From an uncultured Candidatus Saccharibacteria bacterium (GTDB taxonomy: Bacteria; Patescibacteriota; Minisyncoccia; UBA6257; 2-01-FULL-56-20): 27,444 nucleotides of DNA. The stretch is from positions 1 through 27,444 of the forward strand of contig CAZTBQ010000002.1 of the NCBI GenBank assembly GCA_964612445.1, read 5' to 3'. The notes below the pieces were generated by a model, which was not told the origin of the DNA, did not search any database, and saw only the letters and a program-made list of their open reading frames with translations. The position numbers and the translations under genes were made by a program. Below, piece after piece: positions 2,713 through 19,388 of this stretch. Every line of letters begins with the position of its first letter. Positions within the stretch are counted from its first letter, which is position 1.

Positions 2713-4818
2713 ATGCCGCGAATATATCCATTAGAAAAAATTAGGAACATCGGAATTATTGCTCATATTGATGCCGGAAAGACTACTACTTCTGAGCGTG
2801 TTCTTTTCTATACCGGAGTTTCTCACAAAATTGGCGAAGTTCACGAAGGAGCAGCAGTAATGGATTGGATGGAGCAGGAGAGAGAGCGTGGTATCACAAT
2901 TACTTCCGCGGCAACCACGGCTTTTTGGGTTCCAACTTATCGAAAGGGAGATAAAAATTACGAATATCGCTTTAACTTAATTGATACTCCTGGACATATA
3001 GACTTTACTGTTGAAGTTAAAAGATCGCTACGTGTTTTGGACGGCGCAGTAATGGTTTTTGACGGTGTTTCTGGTGTTGAGCCACAATCGGAAACCAATT
3101 GGAGATATGCTGATGACTATCAAGTTCCAAGATTATGTTTTATAAATAAATTAGATAGGATGGGGGCAAGTTTTGTTAATGGATTGGCTTCTATCCACGA
3201 TAGGTTGACTCCAAATGCTGTTGCTATTCAGCTTCCTATTGGGTTGGAGGCGGAACACAAAGGAGTTGTAGATCTTATCAGGATGACCGCTTTTGAATTT
3301 CAGGGTGCTCATGGCGAGAACATTATCGAGATTCCGATTCCTAATGACATGAATGAAGATGTGGCTAAATATCGCCATACTTTAGTTGAAAAAATTGCGG
3401 ATACAGATGATTCTTTGATGTCCAAATATTTAGACGGAGTCGAAATAACTGTAGATGAATTTAAAAAAGCCCTTAGAAAAGCGACCATCGCTAATACTTT
3501 GGTTCCGGTTTTGTGTGGTACCGCTTTAAAGAATAAAGGCGTGCAATTTATGTTGGACGCAGTTGTGGATTATTTACCATCTCCGCTAGACATCCCACCA
3601 ATTAAAGCTATTGACCAGAACACTGGAGTCGAAGTTCCAAGACATTCATCTGACACCGAGCCATTCACTGCATTGGCATTTAAGATCGCAACCGATCCTT
3701 ACGTTGGAACTTTAACTTACTTTAGAAATTATTCCGGAGTTTTGAAGAAAGGTTCTTATGTTTTAAATACTACCAAAGGACAGCAAGAGCGTATTGGACG
3801 TATTGTTCGTATGCACGCTAATGATCGAGAAGAAGTTGATGAAGTCTTTGCCGGAGAGATCGCCGCTATTGTAGGACTTAAAGGGACTACTACTGGCGAC
3901 ACTTTGACCGATCCGACAGCTCCGGTTGTTTTGGAATCTATTACATTCCCTGAGCCGGTTATCGGAATTAGAATTGAGCCGAAGACTAAGGCTGACCAGG
4001 AAAAAATGGGCAATGCTTTACATCGTTTGGCCGAAGAAGATCCAACTTTCCGCGTGGAGGGTGATAACGAAACTGGTGAGACTATTATTTCCGGTATGGG
4101 TGAACTTCACTTGGAAATTATTGTGGATCGTATGAAGCGCGAATTTAATGTTGAAGCCAATGTCGGCAGACCGCAGGTTGCTTATAAGGAAACCATTTTG
4201 GGCGAAGCTGAAGCCGAAGGAAAATATATTCGTCAGTCTGGAGGTCGTGGTCAGTATGGTCATTGTTGGTTGTCCGTGAAGCCTTTGGAACGCGGAAAAG
4301 GATTTGAATTTATCAATGCTATTAAGGGAGGCGCAATTCCACAAGAATTTATTTCTCCGATCGAAAAAGGTGTAAAAGAAGCGGTTAGTCGTGGTGTAGT
4401 TGCCGGATACCCGATTATGGACATAGAAGTCAAACTTTTTGATGGATCTTATCATGAAGTCGATTCTTCGGAAGCCGCGTTTAAGATGGCCGCCTCTATG
4501 GCTTTGCAGGAGGCAGCTAAGAACGCCAAGCCGGTTATTTTGGAACCGATTATGAAAGTTCAGATAATTATTCCGATGGATTACTTGGGTGAGGTTACCG
4601 GTAACGTTAACTCTAAGAGAGGAAGAATTGATGCGATCAACGATCGTGGAAACACTAAGATTATTGATTGTAAGATTCCGCTTTCGGAAATGTTCGGATA
4701 TGTTACCGAGTTGCGTTCAATGACTCAAGGACGAGGAAGCTCCACTATGGAATTTGATCATTACGAGCCAACTCCGAAGAACATTGAGGCAGAGATCGTT
4801 AGTGGAAAACGTAAATAG
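2713..4818 (+). CDS. fusA: Elongation factor G
   Basis: [52 protein letters not shown] motifs; 701 aa. Confidence 0.99.
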
Positions 4819-6422: not shown

Positions 6423-6749
6423 ATGGCAAAGAAAGAAGAAGCACAGCAAAAATTAAGGTTAAGGATTCGCGCATACGATCACAAGCTTATCGACAATTCT
6501 ACTCGTTTGATTATTGAAACGGCCGAGAAGAATGACGCAAAGATTGTTGGTCCTATCCCGCTTCCGACCGAGATTAAAAAATATACCGTAAACCGCTCGA
6601 CCTTTATCGATAAAAACTCGAGAGAGCAATTTGAGTTAAGGGTTCACAAGCGACTTATAGATATTATGAATCCAGGTCCGAAGATAATTGAATCACTTTC
6701 AAATCTTAATTTGCCTGCTGGCGTAGATATTGAAATTAAATTAATCTAA
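6423..6749 (+). CDS. rpsJ: 30S ribosomal protein S10
   Basis: [42 protein letters not shown]. Confidence 0.99.
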
Positions 6750-6774
6750 TCGCACATCTCGTGTGATATGAATA

Positions 6775-6805
6775 CAAAAAACGGCTCCGCGAGGGCCGTT
6801 TTTTG
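6775..6805 (+). terminator. Intrinsic terminator after rpsJ
   Basis: AAAAAACGGCTCC-GCGA-GGGCCGTTTTTT; GNRA loop and T tract. Confidence 0.8.
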
Positions 6806-6806
6806 G

Positions 6807-6977
6807 TTTTTCCAGCAGAAGACGTTTTTATTTTGATTTCGTCGGGTCGCTGTCTAGCTCCTCCTGCGGGAGCTAGCGCTGCCGCTCGTTCACTTTGCTC
6901 TCGCAAAGCGAGAGACCAAGCCAAAGTGAACTGCGCGACACCCGCCGAAATTAAAATAAAAGAGTCGGTTGGAAAAA
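6807..6977. repeat. Multi-branch palindromic element (family M), copy A
   Basis: Outer arms TTTTATTTTGATTTCGTCGGG / CCCGCCGAAATTAAAATAAAA; inner CTAGCTCC-TCCTGCG-GGAGCTAG; GTTCACTTTG[CTCTCGC-AAA-GCGAGAG]ACCAAGC-CAAAGTGAAC. Confidence 0.7.
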
Positions 6978-7233
6978 CTTGGTTGAAAATAAGTGATTAA
7001 GAACAAATTTCGATGTCCTGCCACAAACAGAAATATCGGCGGTTTTAAAACTTATTTTACGAGTGGTGACAGGGCGAAGACAGAGACCAAGCCAAAATGA
7101 ACTGTTTACGGTGAGCATAGTCGAACCGCGCGATACCCCTTATAGGTAAAATATATTTCAAATAGCAAGATAGCAGTTAAGAAAACTTATTTGACGAGTG
7201 GTGAGTGTGGGAGAATTGATTTATTATTCAATC

Positions 7234-7494
7234 ATGTTAGATGATGTAGCAAAAAATGAAAAAAGTTGGGGCAAAGAAGAGTGGCAAGAGATGAGAGCTA
7301 AACTCGAAATTTTGCCGCTCAACAAGCTAAAACTGTTGGCAAAAAATGTTGGTATTCGATTTTCCGGGGAAGATTATGATTTATCGGATCATCCAAAATT
7401 GTCCGAAAAAGAGCAGTTAATTTTAGTTATGGATGAGGTTGAAAAGGAAAAACTCGTTTTTGAGTACGAAAAATTGAAAGGAATTACTGAATAA
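7234..7494 (+). CDS. Hypothetical protein (86 aa from ATG 7234); weak resemblance to Rho-N/HeH helical modules
   Basis: The ORF-track GTG at 7198 lies inside a repeat motif, so ATG 7234 is preferred. Contains LEILPLNKLKLLAKNVGI...LSEKEQLI. Confidence 0.65.
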   Translation: MLDDVAKNEKSWGKEEWQEMRAKLEILPLNKLKLLAKNVGIRFSGEDYDLSDHPKLSEKEQLILVMDEVEKEKLVFEYEKLKGITE

Positions 7495-7564
7495 GTATAG
7501 CTTTCTTGTTCGGTGGGCTTTTTTGGTTTATTCTTTTTGTAGCAATTAAAAAGAGGAGGAAGAC

Positions 7565-7912
7565 ATGCTGTCGCGATTCTTTGGGTGGCTGAAGTTACTA
7601 TTTTTCAAGCCTGCCGTCAAAGATCCTGTGGTTGAGCTGACGCGAATAGCAAAATCAGGTATACCTACGGGAGTGACGTTTGATCCCAAAAGTCTAACTT
7701 TCAAGATTACCGATGTTGGCGCATATTTTGGGAATTGGGATGAGTTTGAGCGCGAGAGCGAAGAGCGGCGAATGCGCGCTGAGCGTACGCAAGCCCTGAC
7801 GATTTCTCGTGACGGGGCATCATCAATTGAGACTCCGGAAGACCTTATTAGATATTTTAGGAATGTTCCCGAAGAAAAGCGTCGAGCGGTTTTGTTCGAG
7901 ACAAAAAAGTGA
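7565..7912 (+). CDS. Hypothetical protein (115 aa) with short amphipathic N-terminus
   Basis: AGGAGG (7554-7559) 5 nt before ATG; followed by a terminator hairpin. Confidence 0.75.
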   Translation: MLSRFFGWLKLLFFKPAVKDPVVELTRIAKSGIPTGVTFDPKSLTFKITDVGAYFGNWDEFERESEERRMRAERTQALTISRDGASSIETPEDLIRYFRNVPEEKRRAVLFETKK

Positions 7913-7916
7913 AGTG

Positions 7917-7942
7917 ACCTGCCTTGGGCAGGTTATTTTTTT
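7917..7942 (+). terminator. Intrinsic terminator
   Basis: ACCTGCC-TTG-GGCAGGT followed by TATTTTTTT. Confidence 0.75.
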
Positions 7943-7988
7943 ATTCAAAAATGTTATTCTGAAGTTAGCAGTTTTAATGGAGGCGCGC

Positions 7989-8324
7989 ATGAAAAGTGCT
8001 TGGCAGGCCAGAATGGAGGTAGAAGCTCTTATTGAACTTGCCAAAGATGGGATGAGCGTTCCTTCGCCTGGGCTCGGTCAGGGCAAGCGATGTAAAAATA
8101 ATATGCAGATTATCTTGAAAGAGATAAACTCCGCCATCGCTAAGGGGAATTGTTCGGTGTATGTTTCTGCTGGGCAGCTGAGATTTCGCAAGCATATTAT
8201 CAAGGGTGAGCAGGTTGGTATTTTGCTTCGTAGATTGATGCGGCTTGGATACGGTGTTTCATTTCACGCCAGCGAACACTATGGAAGCCCCATAATTCGT
8301 ATTTATTGGAAAACCCAGGTTTAA
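7989..8324 (+). CDS. Hypothetical protein (111 aa from ATG 7989)
   Basis: GGAGG (7979-7983) 5 nt before ATG 7989. The longer ORF-track version (from 7809) overlaps the upstream gene and its terminator. Confidence 0.65.
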   Translation: MKSAWQARMEVEALIELAKDGMSVPSPGLGQGKRCKNNMQIILKEINSAIAKGNCSVYVSAGQLRFRKHIIKGEQVGILLRRLMRLGYGVSFHASEHYGSPIIRIYWKTQV

Positions 8325-8534
8325 GGCTTGGGATTTTTTGTATATTACGAAAATACTAATTGGTACTAATTTTACGAATAATTAGTTGAGCTGTTGGGTT
8401 GACCCCGCACCAAGCCGAACGCTGGTCCTTGAGTATGGTTTGATTTGAGGGTGTTCCGATATTAATAAGTATTATATGGATTGTTATATTTCTTCATTGG
8501 TCGGACAGGAAAGGCGTTCGTCTGGTGACAGGGT

Positions 8535-8605
8535 TCAATCCCGTAGTGAATCTCGCTTATTGAATGTAGCGTCTTCGACGCTAGCGAGATTCTACTACGG
8601 GTTGA
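8535..8605. repeat. Long imperfect palindrome with internal hairpin
   Basis: TCAATCCCGTAGTGAATCTCGCT / AGCGAGATTCTACTACGGGTTGA with one bulged T per arm; inner TAGCGTC-TTC-GACGCTA. Confidence 0.7.
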
Positions 8606-8630
8606 CATAAGCCCTCCCATAGACTAATAT
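8602..8630 (+). promoter_or_regulatory. Sigma70-type promoter for the rplC operon
   Basis: TTGACA (8602-8607), 17-nt spacer, TAATAT (8625-8630). Confidence 0.6.
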
Positions 8631-8648
8631 ATGCAAGTCACTTTAATG

Positions 8649-8678
8649 GCTAAGCACTTAAGCAATTAAGTACTCAGT
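8649..8678. repeat. 30-nt hairpin repeat (family H), copy 2
   Basis: GCTAAGCACTTAA-GCAA-TTAAGTACTCAGT; same two mismatches as 1351-1380. Confidence 0.7.
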
Positions 8679-8835
8679 TACATAAGGATAACCGATTAGG
8701 CAATCGCCCGGGAATCCTTGGCGGTTTTTTTATAACAAAATAGGCGGGTTTCGGTGGCGAATAGTCAAAACGCTCAAGCACATATAATGTGCTCGGTCAT
8801 AATTTTCTAACTCGCTTTCGCTCGCAACAAAATTT

Positions 8836-14307: not shown

Positions 14308-14844
14308 ATGGAAAAAGTTACCCCTAAAAAATTATTGGAAAAGATTGTGGTGAATATCGGAACCGGAAAGCTTTCTCAGCTGGCGAATTTTAGTGATAAA
14401 GTTTTGCCGCAGATTATTAAAGATCTTTCCGCAGTTACCGGCCAGCACCCAGTTCAGCGACCGGCCAAGAAATCCATTGCAGGATTCAAGCTCCGACAGG
14501 GAACTATCGTGGGTTTGCAAATTACTCTTCGAGGGCAGAAAATGGTTGATTTTTTTGAGCGACTGATTACAATAGTATTACCTCGTGTGCACGACTTTAA
14601 AGGCTTAAAGACTAACTCCGTGGATGCCCACGGCACTTTAAGCATTGGTTTTCGTGAACAGGTTGTTTTTCCGGAAATTTCTGCCGAAGAATCTCAATAT
14701 ACTTTTCCGTTTGGAGTAAACATCGTTCCTAAGAATGGCAAGAAGGAAGAGATTGTCGCCGCTTACAAGGAATTAGGAGTGCCGTTTGCAAAGGGAGAGG
14801 AGGTTGTATTCAAAAAAAGAAAGAAGAACAACAGGAAAAAATAA
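14308..14844 (+). CDS. rplE: 50S ribosomal protein L5
   Basis: LEKIVVNIG, KKSIAGFKLRQG, LPRVHDFKG, VFPEI. Confidence 0.99.
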   Translation: MEKVTPKKLLEKIVVNIGTGKLSQLANFSDKVLPQIIKDLSAVTGQHPVQRPAKKSIAGFKLRQGTIVGLQITLRGQKMVDFFERLITIVLPRVHDFKGLKTNSVDAHGTLSIGFREQVVFPEISAEESQYTFPFGVNIVPKNGKKEEIVAAYKELGVPFAKGEEVVFKKRKKNNRKK

Positions 14845-17422: not shown

Positions 17423-18694
17423 ATGCAGAAATTATTACAGATATTCACTATAAAGGACTTGAGAAATAAGGTTTTGACCGTAATTGGCCTGCTTTTAGCT
17501 TTCAGGGTGCTGGCTTCTGTGCCGATTCCTGGGGTAGATGCGGTTCGCTTGGGTCAATTTTTAGGATCCAGCCAACTTTTTGGATTTTTAAACCTATTTT
17601 CTGGAGGAGGTCTTAGTAAGCTTTCTTTGGCGATGCTTGCAGTTGGTCCTTATATTACTTCGACAATTATCATGCAATTGTTGACTATTATCTTTCCTAA
17701 ATTTAAGCAATTATATTACGAAGAAGGAGCTCGCGGGCAGGCAAAATTCAATCAATATTCAAGAATGCTCGCTGTTCCGCTTGGAATGCTTCAAGCGTTT
17801 GGATTTTTGAACTTGCTTATTTCTCAACAGGTAATCGTTCGACCGGATTTCATGGGAATGCTAACCAACGTGCTGGCAATCACTGCTGGTTCGATGCTTG
17901 CTTTGTGGTTCGGTGAGTTGATTAGCGAACAGAAGATTGGTAACGGAATTTCGCTGATAATCTTAGCCGGTATCGTTAGCTCTATTCCGAGCGCGATAAA
18001 ATTGGCATTTGTTTCTTATACTTCCGGAATGCTTCCAGCTTATATCGCTTATGCGGTTATTTTCGCGGCGGTAATCATGGCGGTTGTGTATCTTAACGAA
18101 GGCGAAAGAAAAATTCCGATTGCGTATGCCCGCCGAATTCGTGGAAATAAAATGTATGGCGGAGCAACCAGCTACTTGCCACTCAAAGTAAACCAGGCAG
18201 GAATGATCCCGCTAATATTCGCAATTTCTGTTTTGCTTTTCCCGCAAATTTTTGCGCAGATAATGACGGCAATTATTCCTAATGTTGGAATAGCAATTAA
18301 TTCGTTTGTTACTAGAATGATGGCGAATCAGCTAATCTATGGAGCTTTGTATTTCACTTTGGTTGTTGCTTTCACATTTTTCTATTCAGCGATCACTTTC
18401 AATCCGGATGAAGTTTCAAAGAATTTGCAGAGAGGTGGAGGATTTGTGATGGGAATTCGCCCAGGAGAAGCCACTTCAGTTTTCTTTAAGAGAATATTGA
18501 ATCGAGTGAATCTTTCCGGTGCAGTGTTCTTGGGTTTGATCGCAATCTTGCCGATTATTGTTCAGCAGTTAACGGGACTTTCCGCGTTTCAGATGAGCGG
18601 TACTGCATTGCTCATTACTGTTGCGGTTGTTCTTGAGACTATGAGGCAGGTGAATTCGCAGATGACGATGCGCGGATACGAGGCGTTCAATTAA
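17423..18694 (+). CDS. secY: Preprotein translocase subunit SecY
   Basis: GPYITSTIIMQLL, GIGNG-like KIGNGISLII, LPLKVNQAGMIPLIFA, GIRPG; about ten hydrophobic segments. Confidence 0.99.
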   Translation: MQKLLQIFTIKDLRNKVLTVIGLLLAFRVLASVPIPGVDAVRLGQFLGSSQLFGFLNLFSGGGLSKLSLAMLAVGPYITSTIIMQLLTIIFPKFKQLYYEEGARGQAKFNQYSRMLAVPLGMLQAFGFLNLLISQQVIVRPDFMGMLTNVLAITAGSMLALWFGELISEQKIGNGISLIILAGIVSSIPSAIKLAFVSYTSGMLPAYIAYAVIFAAVIMAVVYLNEGERKIPIAYARRIRGNKMYGGATSYLPLKVNQAGMIPLIFAISVLLFPQIFAQIMTAIIPNVGIAINSFVTRMMANQLIYGALYFTLVVAFTFFYSAITFNPDEVSKNLQRGGGFVMGIRPGEATSVFFKRILNRVNLSGAVFLGLIAILPIIVQQLTGLSAFQMSGTALLITVAVVLETMRQVNSQMTMRGYEAFN

Positions 18695-18820
18695 CACTTC
18701 GGAGTGACCGGAGTCGCAAAACTCCAGCGGTTTTGCGCTCCTGTATCTCGACACAAAAACTTTTCCTTCGGAAAAGACCAATCTTTTTGTGTCTCCGATA
18801 CCCACTCCAAAGTGTTAATT
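18689..18820. repeat. Multi-branch palindromic element (family M), copy B
   Basis: AATTAACACTTCGGAGTG / CACTCCAAAGTGTTAATT outer arms; GGAGTCGCAAAAC-TCCAGCG-GTTTTGCGCTCC; GACACAAAAA[CTTTTCC-TTCG-GAAAAG]ACCAATC-TTTTTGTGTC. Confidence 0.7.
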
Positions 18821-18957
18821 TTCGCGTGGTGAAAAAAACAAAGGCGAGGCAGGCACCCCCAAGAAGAGGTTAATTTCGCTGTGAGAAATAATATAATAGC
18901 CGAGCTTTTTGTGCCTGCGATAGCCAGTTCAAAGCGTTAATTTTCGCTGAGTGAAGA

Positions 18958-18988
18958 AATAAAAAACACCAGAAATGGTGTTTTATTT
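18958..18988. terminator. Bidirectional-type terminator between secY and the convergent gene
   Basis: AAAACACCA-GAAA-TGGTGTTTT with flanking A and T tracts. Confidence 0.7.
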
Positions 18989-19330
18989 GGTTAGTTCATC
19001 CCAGGAATTTGTTCCGTAGCCTTCAACGAAAAGTCGATTTGCTCCTACTCTCATAATTGAGGCAATACTGCTAAATCTGTGTACGTTTCGGATAAGTTTC
19101 GAACCGTTCAGTTTTTTGCTGGTTTTGAATCTCGGTGCGCAATGAATGGAAACGTGGCGGTCTTTTTTAATTTTGAATTTATTGAGCCTTTGTCGGCATT
19201 TTTTAAGCAGAACTTTTTTTGCCGCTTTTTGATTGTCTGCTTCGAATTCAAAATGAAAATAAGCGAATCGTGAATCTGTTTGGTTCTTGTTCCATGAGTT
19301 AATAACGACTGTCGCGCTGTAGGTTGCCAA
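18983..19330 (-). CDS. Hypothetical protein (about 115 aa from TTG 19330; ORF-track ATG at 19381)
   Basis: AGGAGG 6 nt before the TTG, and a minus-strand promoter lying downstream of the 19381 ATG, favour the TTG start. Confidence 0.65.
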   Translation of the reverse strand: MATYSATVVINSWNKNQTDSRFAYFHFEFEADNQKAAKKVLLKKCRQRLNKFKIKKDRHVSIHCAPRFKTSKKLNGSKLIRNVHRFSSIASIMRVGANRLFVEGYGTNSWDELTK

Positions 19331-19360
19331 TGGACTCCTCCTTTTAATTAACTGTCTTAG

Positions 19361-19388
19361 AGTATACGCTTTTTTCGCCATTTTTCAA
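19361..19388 (-). promoter_or_regulatory. Promoter for the minus-strand hypothetical gene
   Basis: TTGAAA (19388-19383), 16-nt spacer, TATACT (19366-19361). Confidence 0.55.

Follow-up and report, generated by a model that had tools for sequence, protein, structure and literature searches.

A branched element behind rpsJ and secY

We analysed a stretch of DNA of 27,444 nucleotides from an uncultured Candidatus Saccharibacteria bacterium (positions 1 to 27,444 of contig CAZTBQ010000002.1, assembly GCA_964612445.1), which is referred to here as the window. The assembly of this genome (G000) comprises 567 kb in 60 contigs and is 90% complete. The DNA sequencing runs that contain window DNA were of wastewater and sludge origin. 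Two full copies of a structured element are present in the window, one behind rpsJ (copy A) and one behind secY (copy B). A previous reading of the letters alone (the original prediction) had noted that these two sites share a multi-branch architecture with different stems and conserved loops. BLAST searches with both regions against the organism's own assembly retrieved further copies, and a covariance model (R1) was built from six genomic copies. The element consists of an outer stem (P1), a hairpin (P2), an arm with the helices P3a, P3b and P3c, a bulge and a 3' tail, which are located in the two copies as follows.

6807..6985, + strand: copy A, full element behind the rpsJ terminator (fold z -8.67; R1 148 bits, E 5e-34)
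6808-6847 / 6940-6977, + strand: copy A, P1, an inverted repeat with arms 6821-6847 / 6940-6966 that are 85% complementary
6852-6861 / 6869-6876, + strand: copy A, P2, with loop TCCTGCG at 6862-6868
6883-6885 / about 6935-6937, + strand: copy A, P3a, CGC paired with GCG, followed by unpaired TC at 6886-6887
6888-6897 / 6922-6931, + strand: copy A, P3b
6898-6904 / 6908-6914, + strand: copy A, P3c
6915-6921, + strand: copy A, bulge ACCAAGC
about 6967-6985, + strand: copy A, tail
18686..18837, + strand: copy B, full element (fold z -10.11; R1 119.9 bits, E 7e-27)
18689-18706 / 18803-18820, + strand: copy B, P1, which overlaps the secY stop codon
18715-18722 / 18730-18737, + strand: copy B, P2, with loop TCCAGCG at 18723-18729
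18743-18747 / 18797-18801, + strand: copy B, P3a, GTATC paired with GATAC, followed by TC (18748-18749) opposite TCC (18794-18796)
18750-18759 / 18784-18793, + strand: copy B, P3b
18761-18776, + strand: copy B, P3c
18777-18783, + strand: copy B, bulge ACCAATC
18819-18837, + strand: copy B, tail TTTTCGCGTGGTGAAAAAA

Folding indicated that the two copies adopt one common three-way junction. The free energies were -81.7 kcal/mol for copy A and -57.8 kcal/mol for copy B, and in both cases none of the 200 shuffles on which the z-scores are based was as stable. Every sequence detail of the original prediction was found in place, namely the two P2 loops, the TC preceding a 10-bp arm (6886-6897; 18748-18759), the inner tri- or tetraloop hairpin followed by unpaired ACCAA (6915-6919, 18777-18781), GACACCC or GATACCC on the 3' side, and the long outer stems. 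Two points needed adjustment. The unpaired stretch is a bulge of 7 nt rather than 5, and the element continues for another ~15-20 nt past the 3' limit first given, through a conserved tail (..TCGnnGGTGA/GGAAAAA).

The statement that the structure could not be assigned to a known family held as well, as Rfam 15, its HEARO, omega-RNA-like and IS605-linked models included, gave no match in the whole window at the gathering threshold. When the limit was relaxed to E<=10, no match covered either element core, and the matches that reached the first bases of P1 in copy A (6802-6811) or a part of P3 in copy B (18745-18779) were far below gathering. A description of the family was not found in the literature searched. 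An array cluster from Patescibacteria (preprint 10.64898/2026.10.21.760802) was considered and set aside as a different element with a short period. Copies A and B belong to an uncatalogued, Patescibacteria-wide, non-coding and imperfectly palindromic repeat of ~150 nt, as described below.

Compensated pairing and distribution of the family

The stems and the unpaired segments of the element evolve in different ways. P1 has a median length of 18 bp, and its sequence changes from copy to copy almost without exception. The P2 hairpin comprises 7-9 bp and has the loop TCCNGCG in about 35 of 47 copies (YCCNGCG in the family as a whole), and P3a covaries over its 3-5 bp (CGC/GCG, GTATC/GATAC, CTC/GAG). 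The internal loop of P3 presents a conserved UC opposite U(C/G)C. It is followed by about 10 bp of P3b and by the GC-rich hairpin P3c, which tolerates insertions at its tip. On the 3' side, the 7-nt bulge reads ACCAAGC in 25 of the 47 copies, with AACAAGC, GCCAAGC and ACCATGC as variants. At the 5' end, copies from the genus of the window also carry a box that reads ..CAAGGnnGC, then TC. A boxA-like reading of the GCTC start was dropped, only four bases being shared, and a pseudoknot between loop and tail or loop and bulge was rejected as no consistent complementarity was seen by eye across subfamilies.

Pair statistics were obtained from alignments fitted to R1, whose consensus structure is imperfect in that P2 is absent and P3a misassigned, so that the pair counts refer to P1 and P3 only. 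In the six-copy alignment, 35 of the 48 predicted pairs were compensated. With 47 copies from the family and order of the window, 37 of 40 modelled pairs varied on both sides while 89% of cells remained paired; the covariation score was 0.82 compared to 0.10-0.17 with slid partners, and none of 500 shuffles reached the observed covariation. An independent set of 45 copies from other lineages gave the same picture, with 86% of cells paired; in both sets, slid partners lowered the paired share to 39-52%. Pairing amounted to 97-99% in P3b and to 93-98% in P3c. This agrees with the earlier proposal that conserved loops on replaced stems mark a structured single-stranded nucleic-acid family. The search with a covariance model, which the proposal had named as a check and which might have returned no further members, recovered at least 18 full copies in G000.

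In addition to these full copies, the genome contains about 7 truncated ones; nhmmer contributed two copies cut at contig ends and several of the truncated copies. Four G000 contigs end in a copy, and the true copy number is therefore higher. Among 36 genera of the same family, 22 carry the element with 1-21 copies per genome by R1 (0-21 when all genera are counted), and 26 of 150 genomes sampled across the class were positive, representing more than 20 families. We also scanned 185,579 species genomes for the motifs, which gave 67 stretches, and R1 confirmed 46 matches in 44 of them. The confirmed stretches nearly all bear labels of the Patescibacteria group (Lipton-, Azam-, Wolfe- and Jorgensenbacteria, Spechtbacterales, Minisyncoccia, Paceibacterota, 'Saccharibacteria' and Peregrinibacteria); the titles of a few name no phylum, and one is labelled Omnitrophota. 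Pattern matches in Planctomycetes, Proteobacteria and Actinobacteria failed R1, as chance predicts. Carriage by phages was rejected, as the single pattern match on viral contigs was not confirmed by R1.

Gain, loss, exchange and truncation of copies

The sister species used for comparison (G001, 100% complete) has genes that are 72-89% identical to those of G000. Both genomes have a copy at six sites, which are located behind rpsJ and secY, beside rpsT, and on contigs C16, C5 and C6. At the rpsJ site, the outer P1 and the tail have been retained around a core of another subfamily. At rpsT and C5 (C5:1469), box and tail are conserved and the whole core bounded by P1 is different, the copies at these two sites likewise being of different subfamilies. 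The secY copy is mosaic in that P3 is ~94% identical in G001 (including one compensated pair) while P1 and P2 are replaced, their pairing being kept. The C16 copy, on the other hand, is 97% identical in G001, compared to about 80% in the flanking genes. Other sites differ in occupancy. G000 carries a clean insertion of ~170 nt at C55:2507, just after a terminator, and a copy at C8:14434, both of which are absent from the orthologous sites of G001. Conversely, two tandem copies in G001:C13 correspond to a joined box and tail only (GAGTAAGGTTGCTCG followed directly by TCGGTGGAAGGGAA) in G000:C11. At locus A, strain-level variation is suggested by a metatranscriptome contig that is a perfect match to positions 6732-6810 and diverges beyond them.

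As for the ends of the element, P1 forms an inverted repeat of 16-27 bp whose sequence differs between copies, unlike the ends bound by transposases. GCTCGC direct repeats flank the copies on C31 and C3, and CCCTT flanks the C55 insertion; length and sequence are thus inconsistent.

Taking into account that the box and tail stay while the core differs at rpsT and C5:1469, one may consider a site-specific recombination cassette, in which an Xer-like tyrosine recombinase would exchange the Y-shaped core at a docking site of ~30 bp (..CAAGGnnGCTCG, then nnGGTGrGAAAA..). In this it would be comparable to integron attC sites or to Xer-hijacking elements, which undergo recombination in the form of folded single strands. 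The unoccupied box and tail in G000:C11 against two cores in G001:C13, the GCTCGC repeats, the tandem arrays and a strand-symmetric pairing (see below), which fits a folded-DNA substrate, are compatible with this explanation, as are the copies that closely precede the Xer gene in G000/G001 and G010. However, these are the only two lineages with such an adjacency, and the Xer-like gene, the sole tyrosine recombinase, is universal (59 of 61 genomes) with or without the element. Moreover, the C55 insertion arrived together with its box, which is therefore a part of the element and not a site that existed beforehand. Integron attC sites also keep structure over sequence, with extrahelical bases and a variable terminal structure that may be branched; they are recognized as folded single strands and lie behind small orphan open reading frames (ORFs). 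Here, by contrast, the ends read TCGCAAACG..AGTTTGCTCGC or TTCAATTAAC..GTTAATTTTCG and not RYYYAAC / GTTRRRY, the R''/R' core sites, an integrase and cassette arrays are lacking, and copies are dispersed singly at housekeeping loci. Homologous exchange between the conserved ends is the simpler way to account for the same data, and we regard a cassette as improbable.

Between repeat copies in the long non-coding DNA that precedes the Xer gene, there is also a ~160-nt stretch that is 87% conserved between L057:175-335 (G000:C20) and about 3079-3239 of L059 (G001:C6), far above its surroundings. This stretch may represent a regulatory region or the gene of a small RNA.

Truncated copies lie directly behind full ones, at 6978-7204 and 18838-18964 in the window and also on C3, C16 and C1. 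The partial units of the window are the following.

6978..7069, + strand: decayed partial unit behind copy A, direct repeat, with a stretch like the 3' strand of P1 and the tail motif AAAACTTATTTTACGAGTGGTGA (7047-7069) only; no significant fold (z +0.3)
7070..7204, + strand: 5'-truncated copy, direct repeat (87%), nhmmer model positions 83-108; no fold (z about 0)
8380..8445, + strand: probable vestige of low confidence, recognized by eye at coordinates that neither R1 nor nhmmer reports
18838..18964, + strand: two decayed units behind copy B, direct repeat (78%); no fold

The copy at 7070..7204 contains, in this order, the P3c 3' strand, the bulge ACCAAGC (7087-7093), the P3b 3' strand, a 24-nt insert, GCGCGATACCCC, the P1 3' strand and the tail (7182-7204). 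Its P1 3' strand is of the type found on contig C1, and positions 7128-7164 match the C1 copy at 95%. Behind copy B, the first unit (18838-18890) consists of a P1 3' stretch and a tail only, while the second (18891-18964) is truncated at its 5' side and begins at the bulge (CCGAGC, 18900), with nhmmer model positions 92-150 at 18900-18958. The vestige shows a tail-like AATTAGTTGAGCTGTTGGGTTGA, then CCCCGC, ACCAAGC (8409-8415) and a stretch like the P3b 3' strand. That the partial units are folded RNAs of their own was rejected on the basis of z values about 0, and we consider them decayed copies.

The breakpoints of the truncated copies are not scattered. With the exception of two weak matches (E about 0.1-0.2) and one tail-only match, internal nhmmer fragments start at model positions 83-93, located in the bulge or the 3' strand of P3c, and clear fragments with only the 5' part occur at contig ends only. 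The tail resembles the P3c 3' strand, and deletion between direct repeats in tandem arrays would thus be the simplest cause of truncation. A SINE-like retroelement would account for the same polarity: reverse transcription from the conserved 3' tail, stalling at P3c, would leave head-to-tail copies without the 5' part. Reverse transcriptases (RTs) of ~350 aa are indeed present in 23 of 36 family genomes, one of them 167 nt from a copy (G016:C3). Nevertheless, their occurrence does not track the element in the 60 relatives searched, as an RT was found in 15 of 22 family genomes with the element and in 8 of 14 without, and none was found in G000, G004 and G012, which harbour 6-18 copies. The likeness between tail and P3c 3' strand explains the fixed breakpoint through direct-repeat deletion, and strand-symmetric pairing argues against a selected RNA intermediate. 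A lack of any RT in complete genomes with recent, near-identical copies, which would speak against such an origin, is already largely observed. We therefore consider a SINE-like origin highly improbable.

An array on C3 was observed in addition (L002:313-558; G000:C3:17762-18007), where a full copy is immediately followed by 2.5 repeats of a 98-bp unit with 98% identity. In every unit, the P1 3' strand and the tail are those of that copy and are joined to the 3' half of another subfamily, which points to a recent tandem duplication.

We then considered further enzymes that might mobilize the element, the families searched being PF01797 (Y1_Tnp), PF00078 (RVT_1), PF07282 (TnpB), PF01609 (DDE_Tnp_1) and PF00589. 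In G000 (90% complete), neither PF01797 nor PF00078 gave a match, and PF01797 was likewise without a match in G001 (100% complete), G004, G007 and G012. TnpB and DDE_Tnp_1 were not found in five element-rich genomes. G004 and G012, which are 98-99% complete in 5-8 contigs and contain 6-8 copies, have none of Y1, RT, TnpB and DDE_Tnp_1. Among the 60 relatives, Y1 does not track the element either (6 of 22 family genomes with it and 2 of 14 without). The link to HEARO or omega-RNA and to IS200/IS605 that the original prediction had raised is thus without support, as neither a Y1 transposase nor TnpB was detected in element-rich genomes.

The site of copy A has further contents. The genes rpsJ and rplC, which are normally adjacent, are 2.1 kb apart in the window (6750-8835), and the interval contains copy A, the decayed units, the probable vestige, a long palindrome and the orphan ORFs 7198-7494, 7565-7912 and 7977-8324. 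Only the first of these three ORFs is present in G001, and in G004 the corresponding gap of ~1.9 kb is without a copy. This part of the S10 operon has the appearance of a hot spot for foreign DNA. Neither the three ORFs nor the ORF after copy B belong to a Pfam family above cut-off, and they are therefore not transposases of a known family. The latter ORF (18983-19381, - strand, 132 aa) converges on copy B. Its match to VirE2 (E 1e-4) is below threshold, with 21.4 bits where the cut-off is 27, and is probably not meaningful.

Other repeats were noticed in the same genomes. A separate perfect palindrome of 20 nt, CCTGCCTGCCGGCAGGCAGG, recurs with variants in intergenic DNA (about 3265-3290 of G000:C11 and about 14640-14665 of G000:C8). 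It is found inside the G001 secY copy (L066) between P3a and P1, with a half-site at window 18846-18858, and its stretch gives many short BLAST matches in G001. At window 8505-8614 and G000:C7:14522-14575, box-like sequences (GGCGTTCGTCTGGTGAC / GGTGCTCGCTTGGTGAC) precede GGGTTCAAyCCCGTAGT and a long palindrome. This is a further repeat family, with the motif GCTCGnnGGTGA in common with the tail of the present element.

Folded DNA or an RNA strand

The original prediction had left open whether the structure is a non-coding RNA, the end of a mobile element or a module of 3' untranslated regions. We thus asked on which strand the pairing is maintained. In minimum-free-energy folds of 90 copies, a crude measure, the top strand had 175 G-U pairs and the reverse complement 185, while the same measure applied to the 33 tRNAs of the genome as a control gave 66 and 39. 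In the modelled helices, which are almost purely Watson-Crick, 60 G-U pairs were found against 50 mirror A-C pairs, and the reverse complement folded as well or slightly better. Pairing that is kept symmetrically on both strands is expected of a DNA hairpin or cruciform, or of hairpin-templated correction, and not of a single functional RNA strand.

The orientation of the element, on the other hand, is biased, with about 75% of informative cases following the direction of local genes. Between tandem genes, sense copies outnumbered antisense ones by 22:9 and 25:8 in the two sets (47 of 64 in the sense orientation in all), and at 43 of 55 loci the majority of coding DNA is on the element strand, a bias in which transcription and replication direction are inseparable within loci of 3-8 kb. 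Many copies start 0-16 nt 3' of a stop codon, flush against gene ends. Copy A, the C55 copy and the copy at C1:32357 are each located just 3' of a separate, ordinary terminator. The element itself has no U-tract after any helix, as P3c is followed by ACCAAGC and P1 by the A-rich tail. Contigs from four wastewater RNA libraries cover the 3' end of rpsJ into P1, positions 7038-7232, and copies like those on C31 and C1, at low depth and without strand or end information, so that carry-over of DNA is possible.

In the family and order of the window, 5 of the 28 best matches start 3-6 nt after a co-oriented tRNA gene (L029, L033, L037, L038, L046). Linkage to tRNA genes as a general rule was discarded, as it was seen in 0 of 55 cases in other lineages. 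At L027 and L032 the copy lies just 5' of a tRNA cluster and a tmRNA, respectively, and abutment to tRNA or tmRNA genes (5-7 of 28) is well above the chance expectation. Beside the L027 copy (L027:977-1496, G004:C4), ARAGORN calls five tandem tRNA genes, including one with a CTA anticodon ('Pyl') and one with a four-base anticodon, which may be suppressor tRNAs or a prediction artefact.

These observations raise, as a serious if tentative rival, a functional structured RNA module in operons and tRNA precursors. In this case the P1 duplex would be cut, for example by RNase III, or would block exonucleases, so that transcripts are separated or stabilized or a Y-shaped RNA of ~110 nt is released; the loop and bulge of the RNA would bind a conserved protein, and copies would have spread secondarily. 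The sense bias, the positions behind stop codons and tRNA genes, and the RNA-library contigs are in line with such a module, as are the class-wide conservation of the loop YCCNGCG and the bulge ACCAAGC and the C16 ortholog that is more conserved than its flanks. The median length of P1, 18 bp, also counts in favour of this rival. RNase III (PF14622, PF00636) was not found in the G000 assembly, likely a gap of a 90%-complete assembly in 60 contigs; it is present in 40 of 40 relatives, and its absence from G000 is therefore no argument against such processing. However, the supposed RNA strand has no G-U excess, in contrast to the tRNA control. About a quarter of the copies are antisense to both neighbours, including the rpsT-locus copy that is conserved in both species of the genus. 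The copy number varies from 0 to 21 among genera of one family, congeneric species differ in presence and absence, decayed copies are tolerated beside intact ones, and the RNA contigs carry the limits given above.

The reading that we favour, with about an even chance of being correct, is a structured interspersed DNA repeat of the REP/ERIC/Correia kind, which is co-transcribed with its neighbours. What is maintained would then not be a single strand of RNA but a hairpin or cruciform of DNA, formed where replication or transcription leaves DNA single-stranded. A trans-acting protein, not recognizable as a transposase, would read the surface made up of the conserved loop, bulge and junction. 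Copies would spread and turn over by insertion and by recombination or gene conversion between copies, and deletions stimulated by direct repeats or hairpins would generate the truncated units. Carriage of the element into neighbouring transcripts would be a side effect, as would a -35 box at the 5' end that supplies a promoter for divergent genes. With respect to the three options of the original prediction, the data lean towards a mobile entity at the DNA level, with a role as RNA as the less probable option.

Several points weigh against a DNA repeat of this kind. No partner enzyme was found among the transposase and RT families searched, nor a consistently defined target-site duplication. 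The class-wide conservation of loop, bulge and junction, together with an ortholog at 97% against flanks at ~80%, fits purifying selection on a function. The sense bias and the RNA-library contigs are also compatible with a role as RNA, and the wobble comparison, being based on minimum-free-energy folds, is a crude test.

The promoter mentioned above was recognized in copies with a divergent neighbour. In 9 of 11 such copies of the genus, a TTGACA-like hexamer (TTGnnn) directed outward lies at a fixed offset of 5-6 nt from the 5' end, with a -10 at a spacing of 16-17 nt, whereas none of 6 copies with a co-oriented neighbour had an outward promoter match. Three cases are perfect TTGACA-N16/17-TATAAT, and the rpsT locus has TTGCAA-N16-TAATAT. 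Seven of the nine score 9-12 out of 12, six of them at a fraction of <=0.025 and one at 0.185 of composition-matched shuffles. Judging from these sequences, the -35 of the element and the -10 of the flank likely form the promoter of divergent genes such as rpsT. This outward box suggests that the elements rewire promoters of housekeeping genes.

Comparison with known repeats helps to place the family. Correia elements of Neisseria (CREE/NEMIS) have ends of conserved sequence (26-bp inverted repeats), a TA duplication and an enclosed IHF site. They are non-coding, multi-copy elements of ~100-155 bp close to genes, whose ends pair into a long hairpin, and they resemble the present family in size and hairpin, in the outward -35, and in that copies are polymorphic and a transposase is missing; no cognate transposase is known for them. 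One report (PMC2649163) describes Correia elements as co-transcribed, mobilized between strains, and able to create promoters at their ends and to bind RNase III. Here, unlike in Correia elements, P1 varies with compensation, the interior forms a three-way junction, there is no TA duplication, and the distribution is class-wide rather than confined to one genus.

REP/BIME and REPIN sequences are palindromic, intergenic repeats behind genes that often form tandem clusters, are recognized as folded single-stranded DNA and display an orientation bias. REP sequences are simple hairpins of 20-40 nt with a RAYT gene, whereas the present element has three helices in ~150 nt, and PF01797 was not found in G000, G001, G004, G007 or G012, as given above. 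ERIC/IRU, BOX, RUP and SPRITE are structured, modular intergenic repeats of 100-300 nt, transcribed with their neighbours, for which no mobilizing enzyme is known. Unlike the present family, each is restricted to one genus or family, and their evolution is mainly one of sequence. SPRITE resembles a terminator and has a U-tract, in contrast to the A-rich tail observed here.

We finally consider a bolder proposal, which we find rather unlikely, that the element is not junk but a Patescibacteria-wide functional module whose YCCNGCG loop and ACCAAGC bulge are recognized by a conserved host protein, either as a folded-DNA site or as a processed RNA. If the former were true, the element might, for example, take part in managing supercoils at gene ends or the relation between replication and transcription, or it might represent a new way of transposase-free DNA movement. 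In the RNA form, it would be a new class of processed RNA, in which a hairpin plus ACCA mimics the acceptor end of tRNA.

Strong compensatory change combined with the lack of strand-specific wobble and of a transposase is unusual among bacterial repeats, and bears on how palindromic repeats persist. The covariance model enables the element, which breaks assemblies, to be masked and annotated, provides a marker of strain-level change, and allows a search by phyletic profiling for the protein that reads it. The family reveals that a tiny, streamlined genome spends several kilobases on one non-coding element, whose shape and three short motifs are conserved throughout the class.

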